Assembly (NCBI RefSeq): GCF_037902255.1
Contig: NZ_CP147990.1
Location: 480,001 to 512,000 of the forward strand
DNA: 32,000 bases
Reading direction: 5' to 3'
Origin: Candidatus Electrothrix sp. GW3-4
Lineage (GTDB): Bacteria; Desulfobacterota; Desulfobulbia; Desulfobulbales; Desulfobulbaceae
Under the pieces are notes generated by a model. It saw only the letters and a list, made by a program, of their open reading frames with translations, had not been told where the DNA came from and ran no database searches. Position numbers and translations under genes: made by a program. Shown in pieces: positions 1,086 to 11,081 of the stretch (its first letter is position 1; the number at the start of each line of letters is the position of its first letter).

Positions 1086-1289
1086 TCAGATATCACGATT
1101 AGAATCATCAGCCTCCTTTTTTATTTGCCCCCCACAAGAACCGCAAACCACCCTACCACTCCGATGACACATCCCAGTCAACCCATGCGGCGATTTCCGC
1201 TGCCGTCGTTTACTGAAATTAATAATCAAAGCAGCAACAAGAATAACCATAAAACTAATCCCGAAAGTAAGCAAGAGAATCTTCATCAT
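1086..1289 (-). CDS. nqrM: Small single-TM Cys-rich protein, NqrM-like (Na+-NQR maturation factor candidate)
   Basis: 67 aa: one hydrophobic helix (ILLLTFGISFMVILVAALIINF), then a basic stretch and CHRSGRVVCGSCGG. Its ATG overlaps the nqrF TGA (ATGA, 1286-1289), suggesting translational coupling. The position after nqrF and the GSCGG-type Cys cluster match my recollection of NqrM/DUF539. FeoB-associated Cys-rich membrane proteins look similar. Confidence 0.5.
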   Translation of the reverse strand: MMKILLLTFGISFMVILVAALIINFSKRRQRKSPHGLTGMCHRSGRVVCGSCGGQIKKEADDSNRDI

Positions 1290-2509
1290 CCCCCGAACTC
1301 ATCCTTATAGATATTATCCTCTTCCACCCCCAGATCAATCAGCATCTTGACCAGAGATCGGGTCATCATCGGCGGGCCGCAGGTATAGTACTGGATATCC
1401 TCAGGTGCCTCGTGGTCCTTCAGATACTCCTCGTACAGGACATTATGGACATGCCCCACCGGTCCGGTCCACTTATCTTCCTCCTTGGGCCGGGACAGGC
1501 AGAGGTGAAAGGTGAAATTCGGATACTTTTCAGACAGCGCGGTAAAGTCGTCCAGGTAGGGAACCTCCAGCAGGGTACGGCTGCCGTACCAGTAGGATAT
1601 CTTGCGGTTGGAATGGCGTCCCTTCATCAGCTCCAGGATCTGGCTGCGCAGCGGGGCCATGCCTGCCCCGGCACCTACGTAGATCATCTCCTGCTTGCCT
1701 TCGTGGATGTAGAAATCCCCATAAGGCCCGGAGATGGTGACCTCATCGCCTGGTTTCAGGTTAAAGATATAAGAAGAAGCCTTGCCCGGAGGGGGTGGCT
1801 CTTCGCAGCCGCCGGGCGGACAGGCAATCTTGACATCCAGCTTGAGCAGGCCCTTCTCTCCAGGATAGTTGGCCATAGAGTAGGCCCTGGTGATGGGCAT
1901 GGTCACATTGGACTTGTACTGAAAAAGGCGGAACTTGCTCCAGTCAGACAGGAATTTTTTATTAATATCAAAGCTCTTAAAGGAGAGGGCATGGGGCGGG
2001 ATATCGATCTGAATATAGCCGCCAGGCCGGAAGTCCATCTCCTCGCCTTCAGGCAGCTTGAGCACCAGCTCCTTAATAAAGGTGGCGATATTCTCGTTGG
2101 AAACTACCGTGCATTGCCATTTCCGGGTCTCCAGCATCTCCGGCGGCACCTCAATCTGCATGTCCCGCTTGACCTGGACCTGACAGGCCAGCCGCATGCC
2201 TTGCTTGGCCTCCCGGCGCGTGATATAGCCCCGTTCAGTAGGCAGGATACTGCCCCCGCCTTCCTTGATCGTGACCCGGCATTGCCCGCAGCTGCCCCCG
2301 CCGCCGCAGGCCGAGGAGAGAAAGATCTCCTCGTTTGCCAGGGTGGTGAGTAAACGGCTCCCCGGCTTGACCTGGAGCTCCTTTTTGTCGTTGATCTCAA
2401 TGGTGACCTCTCCGCCGGGCTGGAGCTTTTTCTTGGCCAGTACAATCAGGCAGACCAGGAGGAACTGGAGAGCGAGAAAGGTAAGAACGGCGGCAATAAT
2501 TTCCTGCAT
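1286..2509 (-). CDS. nqrF: Na+-translocating NADH:quinone oxidoreductase subunit F
   Basis: 407 aa: N-terminal TM helix, plant-type 2Fe-2S motif [14 protein letters not shown]...C, then an FAD/NAD(P)H-binding ferredoxin-reductase domain ([16 protein letters not shown]). It is the last large gene of the nqrBCDEF order. Confidence 0.95.
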
Positions 2510-2522
2510 GTCGCGATATCCC

Positions 2523-3131
2523 TTAAAATGAAATTCCGGCCAGCCCCATAAAGGCCAGGGCCATCAGGCCAGCAGTGATAAAGGTTAGGCCGAGGCCCCG
2601 GAGGCCAGCTGGCGGATCGGCATATTCGAGTTTTTCCCGGATTCCGGCCAGGGCCACCACCGCTAGAAGAAAACCGCCACCGGACCCGATGCCGTAGAAC
2701 AGGCTTTCCCCGAAGCTGTATTCGCGTTCCACCATAAAGAGGCTGCCTCCCAGGATGGCGCAATTCACCGTGAGCAGGGGCAGGTAAATCCCCAGGGTGT
2801 TGTACAGGGCAGGGGCAAAGCGATCCAGGGCCATCTCCAGGATCTGGACCACTGCCGCAATTACCCCGATGTAGATGAGCAGACCGAGAAAGGTCAGGTC
2901 CAGTCCGGGGAAACCGGCCCAGGCCAGGGCATCCGGCTTGAGCAGATAATGATAGATCAGGTTATTGATGGGCACAGTGATGACCTGGATCAGAAGCACG
3001 GCAAAGCCCAGACCGGCAGCCGCATTGATCTGCTTGGAGATCGCGAGAAAGGTACACATCCCCAGAAAAAAGGAGAGCACCATGTTCTCCATAAACAGGG
3101 CGGTGAACAGTATTTCCATATAATGCAGCAT
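2523..3131 (-). CDS. nqrE: Na+-NQR subunit E
   Basis: Polytopic membrane protein, [33 protein letters not shown]..., colinear with the Vibrio NqrE N-terminus (MEHYISL...[21 protein letters not shown], from memory). I place the start at ATG 3131, overlapping the nqrD TGA by 1 nt. The track ORF begins one TTG codon earlier (3134). Confidence 0.9.
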
Positions 3132-3754
3132 CAATCCTTCTCCTGTTGGTTGGGGTACACTGTGCGCAGGGTCCAGATCACCAGGGCGATGAGGAAAAAG
3201 GCCCCGGCAGGCAGGAGCATGAGTCCGTTGCCCTGATACCAGCCACCATCGGCAACCAGAGGCATGATTTCATGACCGAAGACCGTGCCGCTGCCCAGCA
3301 ATTCCCGGCAAAAAGACACCGTCATCAGGACAAAGCCGTAGCCCATGCCGTTGCCCAACCCGTCAATAAAGGCCTTGCCCGGCGTGTGGCTCATGGCAAA
3401 GCCCTCTGCCCGTCCCATAACAATACAGTTGGTGATGATCAGGCCCACATAGACCGAGAGCTGCTTGGCAAGATCATAGAAAAAGGCCTTGAGGATTTGG
3501 TCCACCAGGATAACCAGGGTGGCGATCACCGTGATTTGGATACCGATGCGCACGGTGTTGGGAATCTGCTGACGGATCAGGCTGATGATCAGGCTGGAAA
3601 AGGCCACTACCAGCGAAAGGCAGACCGACATGACCAGAGCGGTCGCCATGCTGCCGGTCACAGCCAGGGCCGAGCAGATCCCCAGCACCAGCAGGGCAAT
3701 GGGGTTGCGTTGGAAAAATGGGTTAAGGAGGAGTTCGCTTTTTTTCTCAGGCAT
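3131..3754 (-). CDS. nqrD: Na+-NQR subunit D
   Basis: The track ORF runs to 3853, but its first 33 codons read through the palindromic spacer. [33 protein letters not shown] (ATG 3754) matches the NqrD N-terminus pattern (NPIAL.VLG.CSALAVT), with AAGGGA about 10 nt upstream. Confidence 0.9.
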
Positions 3755-3798
3755 CGTTGTTGATCCCTTTTTGGTTTGTCCGAAGGTTTTGTAATCCG

Positions 3799-4056
3799 GT
3801 AGGGACACGGCATGCCGTGTCCCTACAATAATAATGATACCACCATGCCCCAACGCGGCGCGTTAACCAGCCCAGGGTAACACCCTGGGGATAAATGCGG
3901 AACGCATTCAGGTTGATTGCTCGGGGTGTTACCCCGAGCTGGATAAATATAACCCCTTCGGGGTATGTTTTTCTGGTTCCCAAGCTCTGGCTTGGGAACG
4001 GCTTTTTCTGAAGCTCTGCTTCATTTCGGTATTCAAGGTGTCCAAGCAGAGCTTGG
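3799..4056. repeat. Cluster of at least eight palindromes/hairpins (REP/BIME-like) filling the nqrC-nqrD spacer
   Basis: Read directly. 3799-3826 is a perfect 28-nt palindrome, GTAGGGACACGGCATGCCGTGTCCCTAC. 3852-3864 is AACGCG-g-CGCGTT. 3871-3889 is CCCAGGGT-aac-ACCCTGGG. 3894-3908 is AATGCG-gaa-CGCATT. 3920-3938 is CTCGGGGT-gtt-ACCCCGAG. 3952-3964 is ACCCC-ttc-GGGGT. 3976-3999 is GTTCCCAAGC-tctg-GCTTGGGAAC. 4011-4021 (AAGCTCTGCTT) pairs with 4044-4054 (AAGCAGAGCTT). Confidence 0.8.
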
Positions 4057-4080
4057 GCACCAGTATCTTTTAGAATTTGT

Positions 4081-4854
4081 TTATTTTTTAGAAACACCCC
4101 TGAATCGTTCCAGAAACGGGCCGAACCCGTGCTCGCCGAACCAGAAATGCATTAGGTTGTTGACTCCTTTCATGGTCAGGGTGGCCCCGGAGACCCCGTC
4201 CACCTGATGCGGACCTTTTCCCTGGCTTTTCACGATCTGAATGGCCGGTTGTCCGTTGGGGGCATTGGAGTCATAGAGCTGTTTGCCCTGCCAACCGGCC
4301 TGCCAGTCAGGGTTTTCAATCTCACCGCCCAAGCCCGGTGTTTCACCGTGTTCGTAAAAGGTGATACCGATAATGGTGGAGAGATCCGCTGACAGGGCCA
4401 GGTAGCCGTACAGGGTGGACCAGAGGCCCTTACCGCGAATGGGCAGGATCACCTTGTCCAGCTGTCCGTCCTTTTTCACCAGATAGACCAGGGAATATTT
4501 TTCCTGGCGGTTCAGTCCGGCCGTATCCTCTTCCTTGCTCAGCTTCCTGCTGGTCTCCTTGCTCTGGAGAGAGCCGAGTTGGTCAAATTCCGCAGGATCA
4601 ATCTGTTCGGGCGGGACAAAGCTGCCGTCTGCCAGCCGAATGACCTTGGTCTCCACCTGTTGAAACAATTCCTCCACATCACCCTTGCCCTGATAAAGAC
4701 CAGCGGCGCGGAGGATGTTTTTCTTCCGATCAAGCTTGCGGTTGGCCTCCTGCCTCGGTCGGAGTCCTACAGCAGCCCCGGCAACCAGGACCGAGCAGAT
4801 CAGGGCCAGGACCATGACAGCGCGAAAGGCACCGACCGATGTTTCCTTATCCAT
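4081..4854 (-). CDS. nqrC: Na+-NQR subunit C (FMN-binding)
   Basis: Start chosen at MDKETSVGAFRAVMVLALICSVLVAGAAVGLR (ATG 4854), with GAGGAGG upstream and an 8-nt overlap with the nqrB end. It has a single TM anchor and the flavinylation motif VSGATLT. The track ORF extends to 4920 inside nqrB. Confidence 0.9.
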   Translation of the reverse strand: MDKETSVGAFRAVMVLALICSVLVAGAAVGLRPRQEANRKLDRKKNILRAAGLYQGKGDVEELFQQVETKVIRLADGSFVPPEQIDPAEFDQLGSLQSKETSRKLSKEEDTAGLNRQEKYSLVYLVKKDGQLDKVILPIRGKGLWSTLYGYLALSADLSTIIGITFYEHGETPGLGGEIENPDWQAGWQGKQLYDSNAPNGQPAIQIVKSQGKGPHQVDGVSGATLTMKGVNNLMHFWFGEHGFGPFLERFRGVSKK

Positions 4855-6061
4855 GTCGGAGCCTCCTCTGTCGGATATTGGCCTGGATGACCGGGTAGTC
4901 AAAGAGCGGGGAAAAAACATTGCCGAGCAGGATCGCCAGCATTACCCCTTCAGGATAGGCCGGGTTGATCACCCGGATCAGGATAGACAAGGCCCCGATG
5001 AAAAAGCCGTAACACCACCTGCCGATATCGGTATGCGGGGCTGTGACCGGGTCCGTGGCCATGAAGATGAGACCGAAGGCAAAGCCGCCCAGAACCGGGT
5101 GCCAGTAAAAGGGCAGGTTGATCAGGGCGTTGGAGGATGAGGCAATAAACTGGAAGAGCAGGGCCAGACTCAGGCCACCCAGAAGCATGGAGACCATGAT
5201 CCGCCAGGAGGCGATACCGCAGACCAGGAGCAGGGTCGCGCCCAGCAGGCAGGCCACCACTGAGGTCTCGCCCATTGAACCGGGGATGGTGCCGACAAAG
5301 GCATCTGCCCAGCTGAAGTTGAGGTTGGCAAGCGGGGTCTCAGCAGGGGCCGCTGCCACCTTGGCTAAGGCCGTGGCACTGGACAGGCCATCCACGCCCA
5401 CCCAGACCGTGTCGCCGCTCATGTTGCCGGGATAGGCGAAAAAGAGAAAGGCCCGGGCAACCAGGGCCGGGTTCATGAAATTGCGTCCTACGCCGCCATA
5501 GGCCTCTTTGGCAAAGATAATACCGAAGCTGATGCCCAGAGCCACCTGCCACAGGGGCACGGTGGGGGGCAGGGTCAGGGGGAAGAGGAGGCTGGTGACC
5601 AGAAAGGCTTCAGACATCTCATGGCCCCGGGCAAGATTGAAGATGACCTCCCAGAGTCCGCCTGCTGTCAGGGAAACCAGATAAATCGGCAGGAAATAGA
5701 GGCTGCCGTGGATGAGATTGGCAAGGAAGCTGTCCGGTGTGCAGTGCATACCCATCGCGGCCATGATTGCGCCGCGCCAGCCCGCAGGGCCTGTCAGGCC
5801 CAAGGCTTGCAGGGCCAGATTGGCCTGATACCCGGTGTTCCACATCGCCATGAACACGCAGGGGATGAGGGCGATCACCACCAGAATCATGATCCGCTTT
5901 AGGTCCATAGCGTCCCGGACATGGGGCGCGGAGTTGGTGGTGTGGCGGCTTCCCATGAGGAAGGAGTCCAGCGCATCAAAGGCCGGGTACCAGCGCTCAA
6001 GGCGGCCACCATTATTGAAGAGGGGGGCGGCTTTTTGTAAGAGGGTGTTAAGGATTTTCAT
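4847..6061 (-). CDS. nqrB: Na+-NQR subunit B
   Basis: 404 aa polytopic protein. HVRDAMDLKRIMILV, ...SGDTVW.GVDG.SSATAL (flavinylation-site region) and FMATDPVTAP are NqrB/RnfD hallmarks. No SD is visible upstream (GTGTTTTTCTGAC-ATG). Confidence 0.93.
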   Translation of the reverse strand: MKILNTLLQKAAPLFNNGGRLERWYPAFDALDSFLMGSRHTTNSAPHVRDAMDLKRIMILVVIALIPCVFMAMWNTGYQANLALQALGLTGPAGWRGAIMAAMGMHCTPDSFLANLIHGSLYFLPIYLVSLTAGGLWEVIFNLARGHEMSEAFLVTSLLFPLTLPPTVPLWQVALGISFGIIFAKEAYGGVGRNFMNPALVARAFLFFAYPGNMSGDTVWVGVDGLSSATALAKVAAAPAETPLANLNFSWADAFVGTIPGSMGETSVVACLLGATLLLVCGIASWRIMVSMLLGGLSLALLFQFIASSSNALINLPFYWHPVLGGFAFGLIFMATDPVTAPHTDIGRWCYGFFIGALSILIRVINPAYPEGVMLAILLGNVFSPLFDYPVIQANIRQRRLRHG

Positions 6062-6144
6062 GTCAGAAAAACACGCTGGCCGTATAGTAATAAAATTGTT
6101 ATCATGGGGTTATGAAATGGCGGATTACATATAGGTGTTAAACG

Positions 6145-6327
6145 ATGAATCATTCTGAATTAAAAAAGAAAGCTCTCCAGAAAAAAAATGTCCAACTCGC
6201 TTATGATGCCTTGGAACCGGAATTCTCACTACTTCGTGAGCTGTTAAAAGCAAAGCGTAAAGCTGGCCTCAGTCAAGCTGAAATTGCTGAGCGTATGGGC
6301 GTCAAAGCACCGGCCAAAAAGCCATGA
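6145..6327 (+). pseudogene. Truncated XRE/HigA-like HTH antitoxin fragment
   Basis: 60 aa: MNHSELKKKALQKKNVQLAYDALEPEFSLLRELLKAKRKAGLSQAEIAERMGVKAPA-KKP*. The N-terminal layout and the LSQAEIAERMG helix-turn are typical of roughly 95-100 aa HTH antitoxins. The recognition helix and C-terminal half are missing. No toxin ORF lies upstream, where only 83 nt separate it from nqrB. Confidence 0.55.
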
Positions 6328-6336
6328 GTTAGATTT
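6328..6336. repeat. Left arm of a perfect 9-bp inverted repeat (GTTAGATTT)
   Basis: GTTAGATTT at 6328-6336 is the exact reverse complement of AAATCTAAC at 7068-7076. It lies between the two convergent stop codons (TGA 6325-6327, TAA 6336-6338). Confidence 0.7.
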
Positions 6337-6743
6337 TATTTTCTGCTTATGTCTTTGATTCTAAGCTCATTAATTACGTTAAAAAGTTTCTTGGCAGGAG
6401 CTTTCGCTGGTAGTAAGTTGATAACCCAATCTGCAAGGGCACGGCTTCCATACCGCCAACCTTCTTTGTCGCTCATTCTTGTCAGGTTGGCGTTATTGCA
6501 ATAATTATGTATTGGCTTGGCGGTTCTAATCAGATCCTCAAGATATGAATGAACTGACTGAAAAGCTGCTGCTCGTTGAAGATGTTCAATTGTAGAAGCA
6601 ATTGCTGAGGTGAAGTCAATCTCTGTTCGCCTTTCTGATGCAAATGCTTGAAATAATAATAAGTCACTTTCTCCGCTATATTGCCAATCAAAATCTGTTT
6701 CGAACTCTGACACGCATTCAACAAATTTTTTTTCACTAAACAT
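6336..6743 (-). CDS. Hypothetical protein, probably the C-terminal two-thirds of a TAG-interrupted 238-codon frame
   Basis: A 135-aa ORF, predicted mostly helical, with no family recognised. There is no SD before its ATG (AAAAATATCTAT-ATG). It shares its frame with ORF 6810-7052, and the 22 codons between them (6744-6809) contain no stop. Confidence 0.55.
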   Translation of the reverse strand: MFSEKKFVECVSEFETDFDWQYSGESDLLLFQAFASERRTEIDFTSAIASTIEHLQRAAAFQSVHSYLEDLIRTAKPIHNYCNNANLTRMSDKEGWRYGSRALADWVINLLPAKAPAKKLFNVINELRIKDISRK

Positions 6744-6809
6744 ATAGATATTTTTGTTACTTTCAATTTGCTCGTTTATATTGAGTGCTGCTCTATAATC
6801 AGGAACACT

Positions 6810-7052
6810 CTAGTTTCCACGAGCATACCTTTTATTACCAAATGCAAATCCTGGGCAAAAGAAGTGCATATGTGTCGCTGACCTGCGGTGCAGGTATTCA
6901 AGGTTTGGTATTATTTCGTTTTTTGCAAGAGACAATGACGGACGAGTAAACAGCACTCCAATAATCAGTCTACCTTGAGGTGGAACCTTATTGATGGTTA
7001 CCAAGCGTCTCAAAGTCCAAAGGATATCATTTTTGCTTATGGCTTCGAACAT
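6810..7052 (-). CDS. Hypothetical protein, probably the N-terminal part of the same interrupted gene
   Basis: An 80-aa ORF with a good SD (AGGAG, 7059-7063, 6 nt before ATG 7052) and an alpha/beta-like pattern (RLIIGVLFTRPS...MHFFCPGF). It ends at TAG 6810-6812. No family recognised. Confidence 0.55.
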   Translation of the reverse strand: MFEAISKNDILWTLRRLVTINKVPPQGRLIIGVLFTRPSLSLAKNEIIPNLEYLHRRSATHMHFFCPGFAFGNKRYARGN

Positions 7053-7067
7053 TTAAGGCTCCTGCTC

Positions 7068-7076
7068 AAATCTAAC
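7068..7076. repeat. Right arm of the perfect 9-bp inverted repeat (AAATCTAAC)
   Basis: Reverse complement of 6328-6336. It sits 4 nt upstream, in gene orientation, of the SD of ORF 6810-7052. Confidence 0.7.
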
Positions 7077-7187
7077 GTAAATCAGACAAATCGGGATTCG
7101 GGAGATCAACTGTCCGCTTTCGTTCCACTCAAGCTGACTTACTCGATTTACCCGGTAAGCATACCAGCAGGCAGCAACTTCCGGGTT

Positions 7188-7493
7188 TCATCTCTCATAG
7201 ATTATTTCCCCGGCTTCTATTTCACGCAGGAATGCACCCTTTGCCGCTGCTTTCAGCGGAAGCACATCAACAGGGAGTATCTTCGAAATTTCCCGAACAA
7301 GCCTTCGATACTTGAGAGCAAGGGGAAGATATTTTTTATCGCTGTTCTGGAAGACAGCAATGTCAACATCATTGGGTTGATCCGAGTGAAGAAAAGACCC
7401 GAACAGGACTATTTTTTGAATTTCTTTTTCGTGGCAGAGCGTGTTTCTGATCTGTTCTTTGATGAACTCTTTACGACTTTTGGAAATACTCAT
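7188..7493 (-). CDS. Minimal nucleotidyltransferase, MntA-like (antitoxin type of HEPN/MNT modules)
   Basis: 101 aa carrying the pol-beta superfamily NTase signature LFGSFLHSDQPNDVDIAVF (GS-x10-DxD). Size and C-terminus (...GEIIYER*) are typical of MNT proteins. SD AGAGG lies 7 nt before the ATG. Confidence 0.8.
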   Translation of the reverse strand: MSISKSRKEFIKEQIRNTLCHEKEIQKIVLFGSFLHSDQPNDVDIAVFQNSDKKYLPLALKYRRLVREISKILPVDVLPLKAAAKGAFLREIEAGEIIYER

Positions 7494-7651
7494 TGAAATG
7501 CCTCTTCATGAAATATGAACGCAAGCCTTGCCCGTTTCTCTCTTATGGTCATATGCCGAGTAAGCTGCTGCAAGAAGGATCATTTTTTATCTTAATTTTC
7601 CAACGTCCCGGTGTGTCCGAGCGAAAGCAGACCAGCGCGACTGCCGCTGGA

Positions 7652-7996
7652 TTAGAAGCCAATATCATAACTTTCGACCCATTCATCCACTTTGTCTTCA
7701 AAAGAGTCCATTTGTTTTTGAGTTAACCCTGTTGGGACAAAATCCATAGTTAACCAATTTATGATGTGATTCGTAATAGCAATAAGATCTTCCCCTGATT
7801 GCATCGAAATCCTTTGAGCACTTTCTTCTATTGTTAACCTGCTGCCATCATTCCAAATGATTTTTTTTGCTTGCAAGTCAATATCAGCACCCTCAAGAGC
7901 TTCATCAACAGCATCCATAGCATTGACTGCTATTTCCGTTGCTATTGCCTCATTGTCATATAATAATTCGTCTTCAGCTCTTGCTTTATTTTTCAT
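7652..7996 (-). CDS. Small strongly acidic hypothetical protein
   Basis: 114 aa. By hand count it has 25 Asp+Glu against 9 Lys+Arg. A 345-nt ORF in AT-rich DNA is unlikely to be open by chance. The start lies 44 nt after the nqrA stop and has no clear SD. No family recognised. Confidence 0.6.
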   Translation of the reverse strand: MKNKARAEDELLYDNEAIATEIAVNAMDAVDEALEGADIDLQAKKIIWNDGSRLTIEESAQRISMQSGEDLIAITNHIINWLTMDFVPTGLTQKQMDSFEDKVDEWVESYDIGF

Positions 7997-8040
7997 TTTG
8001 GAAAGTGGCTTGGTTTAATGGTCGTTGACAAATCGAACGG

Positions 8041-9411
8041 TCACCCATCCTCCTCAATCCTCGTCAAAACCTCCCGCAACATTGGCCCGAAGTTATTCTT
8101 CCCAGGACAGACAAAACTGCACAGGGCCAGATCCTCCTCAATCAACTCAAGGCAACCCAAGGCAGCTGCCTTTTCCGTATTGCCGGTGGCAATGGCCTTG
8201 AGCAGGGCCGTGGCAATCAGGTTCAGCGGCATAACCTGTTCATAAGTTCCCATAGGCAGGATGGCCCGTTTTCCTCCCCAGCTTGCCGTACTCAGAGGAA
8301 ATTTGCTCCCGGCTTTCTTTGTAAAGGCAGAGAGGAAGATCGGAAGGCTGGAATAGCGGTCGCCTCCCGGACGCAGCCAGTTCAACAGGCCGGAGCCGTC
8401 TTTTTCCGGCAGGGCGCAGACCTGCTGCTGGTAGCGGCCCAGATAACCGTGAACGTTCTCTTCGCCCATCCCATGCCCGCTTAACACCGATCCGGCAAGC
8501 ACGCGGGCCTGGGAATCAGCAAGCTCATCCTGACAAAGTTCGAGAACAGAGGCACCGGCCAAGGTTTTTATGAGACGAGGACGCTGCATGGACGGTCCTG
8601 TGAGGGCGACAACACGTTCCTCCCAGAGCTTACCGGTGCGGAAGAGATGACCGATTGCAATCACATCCTGGTAGCCGATATGCCAGACCACTTTGCCGGA
8701 ATGTACCGGATCAAGAAAATGGATATGGGTTGAAGCCAGCCCGGCAGGATGGGGGCCGGAAAAATGAGCAACCTCGATATTCGGGAGGTCAGCTCTCCGC
8801 AGACTTATGTCCTGAGAGCAACAGAGAAAGGTTTTGGCTGTCAGGGGTTGAAGAGCGTTCAGCCCTAAGATAAAATCACTTCGGTACTCGTTAATGATGA
8901 TTGATGGATCTGCTGCTAAGGGCTGAGTATCAATAGCCGTGATAAAGAGGGAGGCCGCTTCCGCCTCGGGGGAGGGCACCTTGCCATAGGGCCGTGTTCG
9001 CAGGGCTGTCCATTGCCCGGATGCAATAAGGACATTCCTGATGGTTTCCGCATCGGGCAGTTGCTCTGGGGCAGGGCAGGGGGCGGTAAAGGTGAGGCGT
9101 TCTTCTCCCTCCAGTTTAATCACCAGAGATTCAAAGCGACGACGAAACCCCCGATGGATGGCAATGACCTTGCCCGGAGCCGGGGCGGTAAAGCGGACGC
9201 CGGGATTCTTCTTATCCGTAAAAAGAAGCTGGCCCCCGGCAACCTGATCATCGACCCGCACCTTCATGGTGGGTTTCAGGCCAACATAATCAATGCCGAG
9301 CAGGGCGACCTCGGTGACCGGAGTATCCTCCTGGATACTTTGCTCCGGTGCGCCGCTGATGGGGATATCAAGCCCTTTGCCTATGGTGAACTCCGTTCTG
9401 GAAGAAGCCAT
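8041..9411 (-). CDS. nqrA: Na+-NQR subunit A
   Basis: MASSRTEFTIGKGLDIPISGAP...LLGIDYVGLKPTMKVRVDDQV..GQLLFTDKKNPGVRFTAPAPGKV is colinear with the Vibrio NqrA N-terminus (from memory). I use ATG 9411, 1 nt after the apbE TGA. The track ORF starts at TTG 9423. Confidence 0.92.
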   Translation of the reverse strand: MASSRTEFTIGKGLDIPISGAPEQSIQEDTPVTEVALLGIDYVGLKPTMKVRVDDQVAGGQLLFTDKKNPGVRFTAPAPGKVIAIHRGFRRRFESLVIKLEGEERLTFTAPCPAPEQLPDAETIRNVLIASGQWTALRTRPYGKVPSPEAEAASLFITAIDTQPLAADPSIIINEYRSDFILGLNALQPLTAKTFLCCSQDISLRRADLPNIEVAHFSGPHPAGLASTHIHFLDPVHSGKVVWHIGYQDVIAIGHLFRTGKLWEERVVALTGPSMQRPRLIKTLAGASVLELCQDELADSQARVLAGSVLSGHGMGEENVHGYLGRYQQQVCALPEKDGSGLLNWLRPGGDRYSSLPIFLSAFTKKAGSKFPLSTASWGGKRAILPMGTYEQVMPLNLIATALLKAIATGNTEKAAALGCLELIEEDLALCSFVCPGKNNFGPMLREVLTRIEEDG

Positions 9412-9412
9412 C

Positions 9413-10456
9413 TCAGCCTGCAAAGCCCTGAGTTTTATGAACAGATAAATCCTTCCCGATGAACAGGCCCTCGCAGCCCGGCATATCTGCCAGCATATCC
9501 ATGCTGTCTTTCTTCCCCAGAACCATACAGCCGGTGGCTAAGGCATCAGCCAAGGCGGCATTGGGTGCCGTTATGGTACAGCTTGCCAGTTCGGGTGGGG
9601 AAAAACCTGTCTTGGGATTAATGATATGGTGATAGCGCAGGTCCGGGCTGAAGGGTTGGAAGTAATCCCCCGAGGTTGCCACAGCCATATTATCGCCATT
9701 CACTGTAGGGAGGCTCCCCGGCATTGCAGAACGGGGTTTTCTGATGCCGATCTGCCACAATGCCCCTTGGGGTTTGCCGCCAGTCACCAGCAGGTCTCCG
9801 CCCGCTTCAACAAGGACCTGCTGAAAGCCGTAGGATTGCAGAATGTTAACCCCTTGATCCACAATATAGCCCTTACCGATGCCGTCCAAGGTGATTCCTG
9901 CTGTCCCCGTTCCCTTGTTGTGCAAATGAATCGTATCAGGGGTAAGGCGAAGCTGCTCCTGTCCAATATTCTGCACCAGATTCTGGAGAAGCGTTGTTTG
10001 GCTGACCAGAGATGCCCCTTGCTCCTGATACTGGGTTAAGAGGGGCAGCACGGTGATGTCAAAGGCCCCGGCTGTCTTGTTATGAATCGTATTGGCCAAC
10101 TCCAGAACGGCCCGCAGCTCCTGGCTTGGTTGGTTGAGCAAACCGGTGCGGTTCAGTCTTGCGACTTCGCTTGTCTGCTGATGACGGGTGAGCTTCTTTT
10201 CCAATGCCTGCATCCGGGAGACCGTGGCTGTAATAGCCGCCTCAGCCTGGTCGCGGTCTGGGCTATACACCGTCAGATTGAGCTGGGTTCCCATCAGGGG
10301 AAAAGACTCACGGACGGTAACAATACGAGAATCATCAGGAGAAAAAGGAAAGAAGCGGGCGGCTCCTGCTAGCCCGGCAAGGGCGGCAATGTGCAGGAAG
10401 GTTCGGCGATTCAGACCGTTTTGCAGGTTTCTCGGTGGGGGGGGCATGTTGTTCAT
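9413..10456 (-). CDS. apbE: FAD:protein FMN transferase (flavin transferase ApbE), Tat-exported
   Basis: 347 aa with the twin-arginine signal NRRTFLHIAALAGLAGAA and ApbE-type motifs (AFDITV, AVATSGDY). It lies directly upstream of nqrA. SD GGGAGA sits 8 nt before the ATG. Confidence 0.88.
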   Translation of the reverse strand: MNNMPPPPRNLQNGLNRRTFLHIAALAGLAGAARFFPFSPDDSRIVTVRESFPLMGTQLNLTVYSPDRDQAEAAITATVSRMQALEKKLTRHQQTSEVARLNRTGLLNQPSQELRAVLELANTIHNKTAGAFDITVLPLLTQYQEQGASLVSQTTLLQNLVQNIGQEQLRLTPDTIHLHNKGTGTAGITLDGIGKGYIVDQGVNILQSYGFQQVLVEAGGDLLVTGGKPQGALWQIGIRKPRSAMPGSLPTVNGDNMAVATSGDYFQPFSPDLRYHHIINPKTGFSPPELASCTITAPNAALADALATGCMVLGKKDSMDMLADMPGCEGLFIGKDLSVHKTQGFAG

Positions 10457-10838
10457 GGCAAGTGTCTCCCTTGAAGGTGTAGAGTAAGAGGAAGTTTCTC
10501 GTTCCCTTTGTGCGACGACTTAGAACGACGTGATAAGGGGACAACAAACGAAAAATACTCCATAAGGTACGACGGAACCAAATAAATACACACCTACTCT
10601 GTTCATTTCATTCTGTCAAGACTGATTTTGTGATGACAGGCCCGGCAAGAAACAATTGAAATATTCATGTCAGTGTCAGCTGGGCTGGCAATAATTCAGT
10701 GCAAGACTGTCTGACCCGTTGATCTTTTTTAAGATACAGGGGCAATGCAGTTATCTTGATGAATTTTTGATAGAATCCATGAGTTTTTTTGATAAGAAGT
10801 ATTACAGGGACTTGCAGAGAACCAGGAAAGATTTTTCC

Positions 10839-10867
10839 TTGACATTCGTCAAACAACAAATTATTAA
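10839..10867 (+). promoter_or_regulatory. Candidate sigma70-type promoter for aprBA
   Basis: TTGACA (10839-10844), a 17-nt spacer, then TATTAA (10862-10867). This would give an aprB leader of about 210 nt. Sequence pattern only. Confidence 0.35.
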
Positions 10868-11081
10868 GTGACACACTCCCGATATAATCCAGTGATTATT
10901 GAGGGCCAGAAGTTGAAATTTTAAGGACGAAATACAAAGATAGCAACCGTGTAAAAAAAAATGTTCAGGCAGGAATGCTGTGGATAAGTTGCTGTTCTTT
11001 GAATTTAATTTTTAGTGGTAGATCTTAATGTGATGGCGGATGAACGCTGTCATAAAGAAAATCCTATGAGGAGGTAGTTAA

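Follow-up and report, generated by a model that had tools for sequence, protein, structure and literature searches.

A variable, gene-bearing gap between nqrA and nqrB in Candidatus Electrothrix, probably a recombination hotspot inside a respiratory operon

Why does a respiratory operon keep nearly 2 kb of accessory DNA between two of its cistrons? The question is raised by a 32,000-nt stretch of the Candidatus Electrothrix sp. GW3-4 genome (NZ_CP147990.1, positions 480,001 to 512,000), here called the window, in which the nqrA stop lies at 8041 and the nqrB ATG at 6061, leaving a spacer of 1979 nt (6062-8040) when the coordinates are rechecked. NQR has been noted as a trait of marine Electrothrix and as a signature marine adaptation (PMC12093952, PMC10030654). 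In literature searches we found no description of a split nqr operon, of integrons or of toxin-antitoxin (TA) systems in cable bacteria. An initial annotation, made from the letters of the window, had described accessory, compositionally deviant DNA placed exactly between two full-length cistrons that adjoin each other in Vibrio-type nqr operons. Coordinates and Pfam domains agree with this, and in relatives the operon is indeed unbroken.

Based on comparison with related genomes, we consider it probable that the nqrA-nqrB junction is a homology-anchored recombination hotspot for accessory genes, mainly TA and defence genes, inside the operon. It is seen in every core Electrothrix genome examined and in no other lineage examined. 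The window represents a late, decayed state of this hotspot, in which the flanking nqr genes stay intact.

The nqrA-nqrB gap across Electrothrix

A scan for NqrB, with one genome per species, gave 80 loci, and the nqrA-nqrB distance was measured in each; further Electrothrix loci were gathered through homologs of NqrA and of o114, a 114-aa spacer protein described below. We refer to the loci as L0xx and to the window locus as WIN. All of the complete core-Electrothrix loci (13/13) have a gap of 720-4072 nt with a G+C content of 0.38-0.48, and two partial loci are also expanded. In 74 taxa outside Electrothrix, among them other Desulfobulbaceae, Planctomycetota and Gammaproteobacteria, the distance never exceeds 366 nt and is usually 2-60 nt. 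Judged from these sequences, the gap is ancestral to core Electrothrix and its content is different in nearly every species. For the initial annotation, the same spacer with intact, conserved genes in related genomes would have spoken for an ancestral arrangement; on this the outcome is split, as the gap is shared and its content is not conserved between species. The outlying Electrothrix sp. AR4 (L095, QYKT01000003.1) has a gap of 125 nt and an NqrA of 72% identity. The AR4 neighbourhood differs as well, with exbB, exbD and tonB where redox genes adjoin apbE elsewhere, and this nqr locus belongs either to a deep branch or to a contig that was binned wrongly.

Over the 15 loci (13 complete and two partial) we counted 27 cargo families. 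One HEPN-MNT pair is intact in E. aestuarii and L087, L088 and L091 carry another pair of this type that is unrelated to the first, HigBA is intact in L004 and L006, and BrnT with its partner (BrnTA) occurs in L091. E. laxa carries a TIR-KaiC-type ATPase (PADLOC PDC-S66, 1.6e-63) together with an O-methyltransferase, L096 a 956-aa TIR-STAND-FGE protein, and both L005 (4613-5833) and L086 (10758-11978) a second, divergent nqrF-like gene. The product of this nqrF paralog has 407 aa with Fer2, FAD_binding_6 and NAD_binding_1 domains and is 61% identical to the operon NqrF; L005 retains a normal nqrF downstream (93% identical). Many cargo families have no assignment. Content differs within a species too, as the E. 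gigas assemblies L003 and L091 carry unlike gap content.

For a split of this kind one might suspect a fault of assembly or binning, or take the genes in the spacer for lineage-specific accessory subunits of NQR, and co-orientation with nqr is the only point in favour of this pair of explanations. The spacer sequence is identical in two independent Logan assemblies and lies on the 4.64-Mb contig of GW3-4 (locus tags WGN25_02230 and WGN25_02240), and three other species show equivalent gaps on records that are long or at chromosome level, which excludes an assembly artefact. Accessory subunits do not fit with content that differs in nearly every species and includes pseudogenes. We therefore give both of these explanations practically no weight.

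The cargo and its flanks have different ages. For the same genome pairs, synonymous divergence (dS) of the cargo is 2-9 times below that of the flanks. For o101, an MNT-type nucleotidyltransferase gene of the spacer, dS is 0.13 between WIN and L004 (nqrA/nqrB 0.53-0.57), 0.19 between WIN and L005 (nqrA/nqrB 0.54-0.69) and 0.08 between L004 and L005 (nqrA/nqrB 0.61-0.75), and for o114 it is 0.21 between WIN and L091, where nqrA/nqrB give 0.86. Because cargo dS is below flank dS, and because G+C and tetranucleotide content deviate, our reading of the sequences is that the cargo is younger than the flanks and was gained horizontally rather than inherited with them. The same core genes thus flank varying content, as in a hotspot, and the cargo does not share their descent.

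The spacer had been called compositionally foreign in the initial annotation, and against the 32-kb window it is indeed the extreme. Its G+C content is 0.407 (40.7%) compared with 0.497 for the window, the lowest among 301 sliding 2-kb windows (mean 0.499, standard deviation 0.036), and in tetranucleotide content it is the stretch most distant from the window as a whole (0.41, with a mean of 0.25 and a standard deviation of 0.047). The word "foreign" should nevertheless be softened, because the nqr and apbE genes (1286-6061 and 8041-10456) are unusually G+C-rich at 0.55-0.60, with the neighbouring ribosomal and rpoB genes at ~0.45-0.52, and because ordinary intergenic DNA in the window (10457-11060) is also at ~0.39.

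The gaps also hold scars. Partial copies of the nqrA 3' end, 46-184 nt long, lie between cassettes in L005, L086, L084, L088 and L091 and twice in L083, a metagenome contig that has three tandem nqrA ends with different cargo after each. The joins show short microhomologies, e.g. TTGAAGAC and AACT. The second MNT-HEPN pair (MNT2-HEPN2) and a 100-nt scar block are essentially identical in L088 and L091, whose real nqrA ends differ, so that scar and cargo move together.

Three side observations concern individual gaps. A ~240-nt block, 88-95% conserved, lies upstream of and overlaps the start of a 154-aa cargo ORF in five loci (L003 3450-3690, L005 ~3882-4123, L050 ~5880-5980, L083, and L091 ~9084-9326); it is absent from the window and has no Rfam match at gathering score in L003, L005 and L050, the loci tested. 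The nqrB gene of L091 (10408-11745) is annotated with 445 aa, compared with 404 aa elsewhere, and its annotated start is probably too far upstream, running into the BrnT/partner cassette. In L050 (E. aarhusensis MCF, MTKO01000102.1, 6001-9631), nqrB, nqrD and nqrE translate in pieces. We considered a xenologous nqrB in this genome given its 61% amino acid identity and rejected it, as full-length identity to the window at the DNA level is 83% and assembly frameshifts are probable.

A palindrome confined to the gaps and how cargo may be gained

A palindromic element of ~95 nt recurs in the gaps, with the consensus AGTCGCGTAGGTCCGCTTGAGTGGAACGAAAGCGGACAGTTGATTTCCCGAATCCTGAATTGTCTGATTTCGTTGCACTCAATTAGACCTACGAACTG. 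We found 15 copies, 15/15 of them inside nqrA-nqrB gaps and 15/15 in nqr-sense orientation, and no copy in ~185 kb of non-gap Electrothrix DNA. A scan of Joint Genome Institute (JGI) metagenomes returned a single contig, itself an nqr gap. In the DNA searched, the palindrome is thus not a dispersed repeat of the repetitive extragenic palindromic (REP) or miniature inverted-repeat transposable element (MITE) type, which would have many genome-wide copies. The viral contigs that we scanned contained neither the palindrome nor a relative of the MNT gene, which leaves a viral origin unsupported. The position of the palindrome varies by genome, and it may follow nqrA, o114, o157, o166, o229, the MNT-HEPN pair or the conserved 240-nt block.

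For the intact L050 copy, the folding energy is -45.4 kcal/mol as RNA (z=-7.9) and -28.3 as DNA (z=-8.7). The window copy (7054-7147, minus strand; nhmmer E=1.8e-24) has a decayed 3' arm, and with this arm lost it folds no better than shuffled sequences (z=-0.4). Across the copies, 88% of cells in the palindrome are paired, compared with 20-44% in slid controls. No measure of covariation rose above shuffled controls, so it is palindromy that supports the structure. At a permissive E-value, the intact palindrome gives only generic hairpin (miRNA precursor) noise in Rfam; the window spacer has one chance-level Rfam match (psRNA6, E=0.96), and four related loci have none at gathering score. Inside the palindrome there are at least seven distinct rearrangement breakpoints (at ~13, 18-26, 22, 52, 63, 74-80 and 83).

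These features could be taken to describe an integron. Sedentary chromosomal integrons and clusters of attC sites without an integrase (CALINs), e.g. the Vibrio superintegron with its VCR repeats, resemble the gaps in having short ORFs followed by highly similar imperfect palindromes of ~100 nt, TA cassettes interspersed among them, and addition at the proximal end. The nqrA-nqrB gap would accordingly be a site-specific cassette array, with the palindrome as an attC-type site, a recombinase encoded elsewhere and ORF-plus-palindrome units inserted beside nqrA. Such units do recur (o114 and o157 each followed by a palindrome in L089, o166 and o229 in L086, the MNT-HEPN pair in L087), the palindrome copies are ~87% alike, as in sedentary chromosomal integrons, and the cargo is small, TA-rich and mostly co-oriented. 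The palindrome folds strongly as single-stranded DNA, and a direct repeat of ~18 nt of its 5' end flanks the MNT cassette. However, the 32-kb window has no evident integrase ORF, nor did gene calling give one in related gaps, and by inspection of the 15 copies the palindrome ends, AGTCGCGTAGGTC...GACCTACGAACT, misfit the attC cores RYYYAAC and GTTRRRY. Each array has only 0-2 palindromes and several cassettes have none. Set against a density of two or more sites within ~4 kb, as for a CALIN, the picture is mixed, with two copies each in L089, L086, L005 and L083, and one decayed copy and a 26-nt fragment in the window. The breakpoints are scattered along the palindrome rather than at a fixed position, and duplications of the nqrA 3' end, i.e. 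of the proximal region, are unexpected from recombination between attI and attC. An integron-like array is therefore an unlikely explanation. It is similarly improbable, in our estimate, that the palindrome and the nqrA 3' end are attachment sites of an undescribed cassette-capture system without a nearby integrase, whose units, an ORF together with a palindrome or with an nqrA 3' copy, would excise as circles and reinsert at the nqrA end. If these were recombination sites, they would represent a new way to build cassette arrays, and a capture system of this kind would mean that an exchangeable array of defence and TA cassettes is embedded in, and transcribed with, a respiratory operon.

Alternatively, the palindrome may act mainly in cis as RNA, within the nqr transcript. 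It would then either stabilise the 3' end of the apbE-nqrA message or, as a processing site, uncouple nqrA from nqrB-F, and cargo would accumulate only because an uncoupled junction tolerates insertions. This explanation is compatible with a hotspot and assigns a different role to the palindrome. Besides the uniform sense orientation of the copies, it is favoured by the better folding of the nqr-sense strand than of its complement (-45.4 vs -37.1 kcal/mol as RNA), by two G-U pairs that are invariant in 10/10 copies, by the location of the palindrome directly after nqrA in the simplest loci (L050, L003 and L032), and by the genus-wide expansion of the nqrC-nqrD junction, which suggests a subdivided operon. 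On the other side are the lack of covariation beyond shuffled controls and of any Rfam family match. There is no U-tract past the stem, so the element is not an intrinsic terminator, and since it is missing from L006, L084, L088 and L096 and decayed in the window, it is dispensable. We regard a primary role in RNA as possible but doubtful.

Returning to the homology-anchored hotspot, the following route would produce what is seen. DNA of other Electrothrix strains would enter by homologous recombination anchored in the conserved 3' end of nqrA, and the other side of the incoming DNA would be joined illegitimately at short microhomologies. Each event would restore an intact nqrA and leave a partial copy of the nqrA 3' end as a scar before the older cargo, and selection would retain only events that restore nqrA. 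Many of the breaks would fall in the long palindrome, which is probably a fragile site. As an alternative route, a circle bearing an nqrA 3' copy could enter by Campbell-type integration and would leave the same scars. We infer a mechanism of this type because the scars match this expectation.

Homology-facilitated illegitimate recombination has been described for naturally transformable bacteria. It has the same layout of one homologous anchor, here nqrA, with the other join at 4-8-nt microhomologies and foreign DNA beside the anchor; the difference is that in cable bacteria the process is read from its scars alone. Hotspots of horizontal gene transfer and of defence genes flanked by core genes are likewise known, e.g. 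in Enterobacteria and Pseudomonas. There too, the same core-gene interval holds different accessory genes in each genome, TA and anti-phage genes are enriched, most instances have no integrase, and flanking homology can drive the exchange. The Electrothrix hotspot differs in that the interval is a cistron junction within the operon of a respiratory complex, the cargo is only 0.7-4 kb, and nqrA 3' scars and a palindrome are present that, in the DNA searched, are found only at this locus.

Several points weigh against this account. The mechanism is reconstructed from scars, and neither an intermediate of recombination nor a donor or a route of transfer was seen. Real and scar nqrA 3' ends differ by 11-17%, which suits old duplications as well as separate origins. 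The low dS of the cargo could be inflated by codon or G+C constraints of AT-rich genes. The palindrome search took in the gaps and the ~185 kb of other DNA, so copies may exist elsewhere in the genomes. In addition, a consensus scan of the nqr strand near nqrB identified no sigma-70-like promoter for this gene.

The junction provides a compact natural record of gene gain, exchange between species, toxin loss and retention of an orphan antitoxin. It is also a small marker, of a size suited to the polymerase chain reaction, for strain identity and gene flow in uncultured cable bacteria.

The spacer of the window as a mosaic

By comparison with the related gaps, at least four units that differ in history make up the spacer in the window, which is a mosaic and not one inserted module. 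Five parts can be told apart: o114, the MNT gene with what is left of its HEPN toxin gene, the decayed palindrome, an interrupted 238-codon gene and the remains of higBA. The initial annotation had proposed a mobile cassette set, which could be a small undescribed TA or defence module. A single mobile element of 2 kb would agree with the composition of the AT-rich block, which changes sharply at either cistron end, and with its small, partly co-oriented genes. However, no direct or inverted repeats flank the block (only chance-level short matches were found), neither a target-site duplication nor terminal repeats surround the whole, and no integrase, transposase or other recombinase ORF is evident in the spacer or elsewhere in the window. 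The parts occur separately and recombined in relatives, and those that can be recognised derive from two known families, HEPN-MNT and HigBA, as remnants that have lost the toxin genes by deletion. We consider insertion of a single element very improbable. The TA or defence flavour noted for the spacer and the co-orientation of its larger genes with nqr were borne out, and so was the damage, which affects three genes rather than two; beside these there are one orphaned antitoxin and one intact gene of an unassigned family.

The intact gene is o114 (WGN25_02240; 7652-7996, minus strand), which starts 44 nt past the nqrA stop. Homologs with 71-91% identity are present in other Electrothrix, every one of them in the nqrA-nqrB gap. 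In five genomes, o114 is always downstream of nqrA 3' sequence and is followed by the palindrome wherever the sequence continues. The omega values are 0.24-0.56. No match was found in Pfam, PADLOC or NCBIfam that would indicate a function. The AlphaFold2 (AF2) model has a predicted local distance difference test (pLDDT) score of 85, yet no fold in the PDB matches at E<=0.001. A profile finds 175 remote relatives, and those tested have no significant Pfam domain; one remote homolog has a sub-threshold match to Nmad5.

Next is the MNT cassette. The gene o101 (7188-7493, minus strand) encodes an MNT-type nucleotidyltransferase (Pfam Polbeta PF18765, 1.2e-12; PF01909, 9.8e-6), and its translation shows LFGSFLHSDQPNDVDIAV, a G-S-x(n)-D-x-D motif. 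Its MNT/Pol-beta fold with the GS...DVD motif resembles that of the MntA-type adenylyltransferase antitoxin of type VII HEPN-MNT systems, although against the NCBIfam MntA model NF047752 it scores 26.7 bits (E 3.9e-6), under the equivalog cut-off of 60 bits. The protein is 97-99% identical in L004, L005, L084 and L087. Of the HEPN toxin, a remnant is left at 7148-7198 (minus strand), in which an internal deletion of ~340 nt has joined the region of the start codon to the final ~30 nt, leaving 16 codons. HEPN is intact after MNT in L084 and L087 (PF05168, 1e-22), and in E. aestuarii and one further species the 128-aa HEPN gene overlaps MNT by 11 nt. The L084 HEPN has KLQKTH, i.e. K-x4-H instead of R-x4-H, as seen when the R-x4-6-H motif was checked; the corresponding partner is gone from the window. 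WIN and L005 have the same deletion junction, GGAAGT|TGCTG, and L004 has a different one with AAGT microhomology, so HEPN was lost at least twice. Overall omega of o101 is 0.02-0.22, and because it is 0.02-0.08 among the three toxin-less genomes, o101 fits the picture of an orphan antitoxin of a HEPN-MNT pair, retained by selection after loss of the toxin.

The left border of this cassette, before the MNT leader, is a 26-nt copy of the palindrome 5' end (AGTCGCGCTGGTCTGCTTTCGCTCGG; 7617-7642, minus strand). In L084, L087 and L004 the AGTCGCGCTGGTCTGCTTTCGCTCGG sequence again stands to the left of MNT, and over its first ~18 nt it agrees with the beginning of the full palindrome. An ORF of 173 aa at 6975-7496 on the plus strand is antisense both to the MNT gene and to the palindrome, and it matches no family. 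Its equivalent in L005 is shorter (119 aa), and the ORF is probably spurious.

The two ORFs o80 and o135 (6336-7052, minus strand) form one gene of 238 codons, interrupted by a TAG in their common frame (6810-6812). At the position of this stop, all of the intact homologs that cover the stretch (5/5) have a Trp, which indicates a change from TGG to TAG. Intact homologs have 238-247 aa, and by this comparison the window copy is a pseudogene of an unassigned family. The family has no match in Pfam or PADLOC, and weak thioredoxin-like matches to the AF2 model, whose pLDDT is only 61, are not meaningful. In L094 (4696-6729), the only long contig that we found with a homolog (242 aa, 50% identity), the gene directly follows a C5 DNA methylase gene (PF00145), and the pair is inserted between Fer4/FlpD-type redox genes. 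From this single context, the family could perhaps be associated with restriction-modification.

The unit closest to nqrB is what remains of higBA, on the plus strand. The HigB toxin remnant (6112-6141) has 9 codons (MKWRITYRC*) after an internal deletion of ~289 nt; by alignment, this part of higB is kept in L004 and L006, where the Gp49-like HigB is intact (L004 PF05973 at 3.2e-28). The HigA-type helix-turn-helix (HTH) antitoxin gene o60 (6145-6327) is truncated after residue ~57 of 96, its 3' end being replaced by the o80/o135 unit. It is 93% identical to residues 1-57 of the intact L004 HigA, which matches HTH_3 at 1.1e-12; the match of o60 itself spans profile positions 1-23 of 55 and, at E=0.0026, falls short of the cut-off. 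Thus the typical order of HigBA, a Gp49-like HigB upstream of an HTH_3 HigA, is intact in the same place and orientation in L004 and L006, whereas in the window both genes are inactivated, with the promoter region, 9 higB codons and 57 higA codons kept. A sigma-70-like hexamer pair (ATGTCA-17-TATAGT) at 6060-6088 on the plus strand, found by consensus scan only, is a candidate higBA promoter; it directly borders the nqrB start of the opposite strand, with some overlap, and the region is conserved with L004, L006 and L088. As the toxin genes are gone, HEPN-MNT and HigBA fail as functional systems in the window. Toxin deletion is recurrent in the gaps, with HEPN lost at least twice and HigB lost in WIN and apparently also in L089 and L096.

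Layout and expression of the split operon

All of the nqr genes in the window are on the minus strand, in the order apbE (9413-10456), nqrA (8041-9423), nqrB (4847-6061), nqrC (4081-4854), nqrD (3131-3754), nqrE (2523-3134) and nqrF (1286-2509). The distances at the other junctions given in the initial annotation match independent gene calls on the identical contig and in relatives. NqrA, NqrB and ApbE have full-length domain sets in Pfam. NqrA (NQRA_N, NQRA_2nd and NQRA_SLBB) is full length at 456 aa with the start chosen by the gene caller on the identical contig (9411), or 460 aa with a TTG start at 9423, and NqrB is full length at 404 aa (NQR2_RnfD_RnfE, 1.4e-99). Because nqrA and nqrB are still under purifying selection (omega 0.05-0.13; nqrB 0.07-0.13), the complex is presumably made.

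How nqrB-F are expressed across the gap is of interest, since stoichiometric expression of a six-subunit membrane complex must span foreign, changing and partly antisense-transcribed DNA. A T-rich leader of ~25 nt without a Shine-Dalgarno sequence precedes the nqrB ATG and, in the alignment of upstream regions, is common across Electrothrix whatever the cargo. The initial annotation attributed the missing Shine-Dalgarno of nqrB to the insertion, and this was not sustained, because several relatives with a tight nqrA-nqrB junction of 2-20 nt likewise have none. A Shine-Dalgarno-like GAGGAGGA does lie within the final 15 nt of nqrA (8041-8055, GAGGAGGATGGGTGA). Terminator-like hairpins in the spacer are weak ones only, and the intact higBA of L004 and L006 is oriented against nqr. 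Expression of nqrB-F would come either from read-through across co-oriented cargo or from a promoter close to nqrB.

The nqrC-nqrD junction is likewise widened, to 326 nt in the window (3755-4080) and to 134-450 nt in every core Electrothrix locus scored (the window, L003-L006, L032, L050, L084, L086 and L088-L091). In 67 other taxa the median spacing is 1 nt and the maximum 175 nt. The window's nqrC-nqrD spacer contains several hairpins, and the operon apparently falls into three parts, apbE-nqrA, nqrBC and nqrDEF. A cargo ORF in the nqrC-nqrD spacer of L086 was rejected as a wrong-strand gene call over nqrD. Outside the nqrA-nqrB spacer, the large ORFs of the window are core genes: tuf, nusG, rplK, rplA, rplJ, rpoB, and FAD and 4Fe-4S oxidoreductase genes upstream of apbE, which we read as apr/qmo-type.

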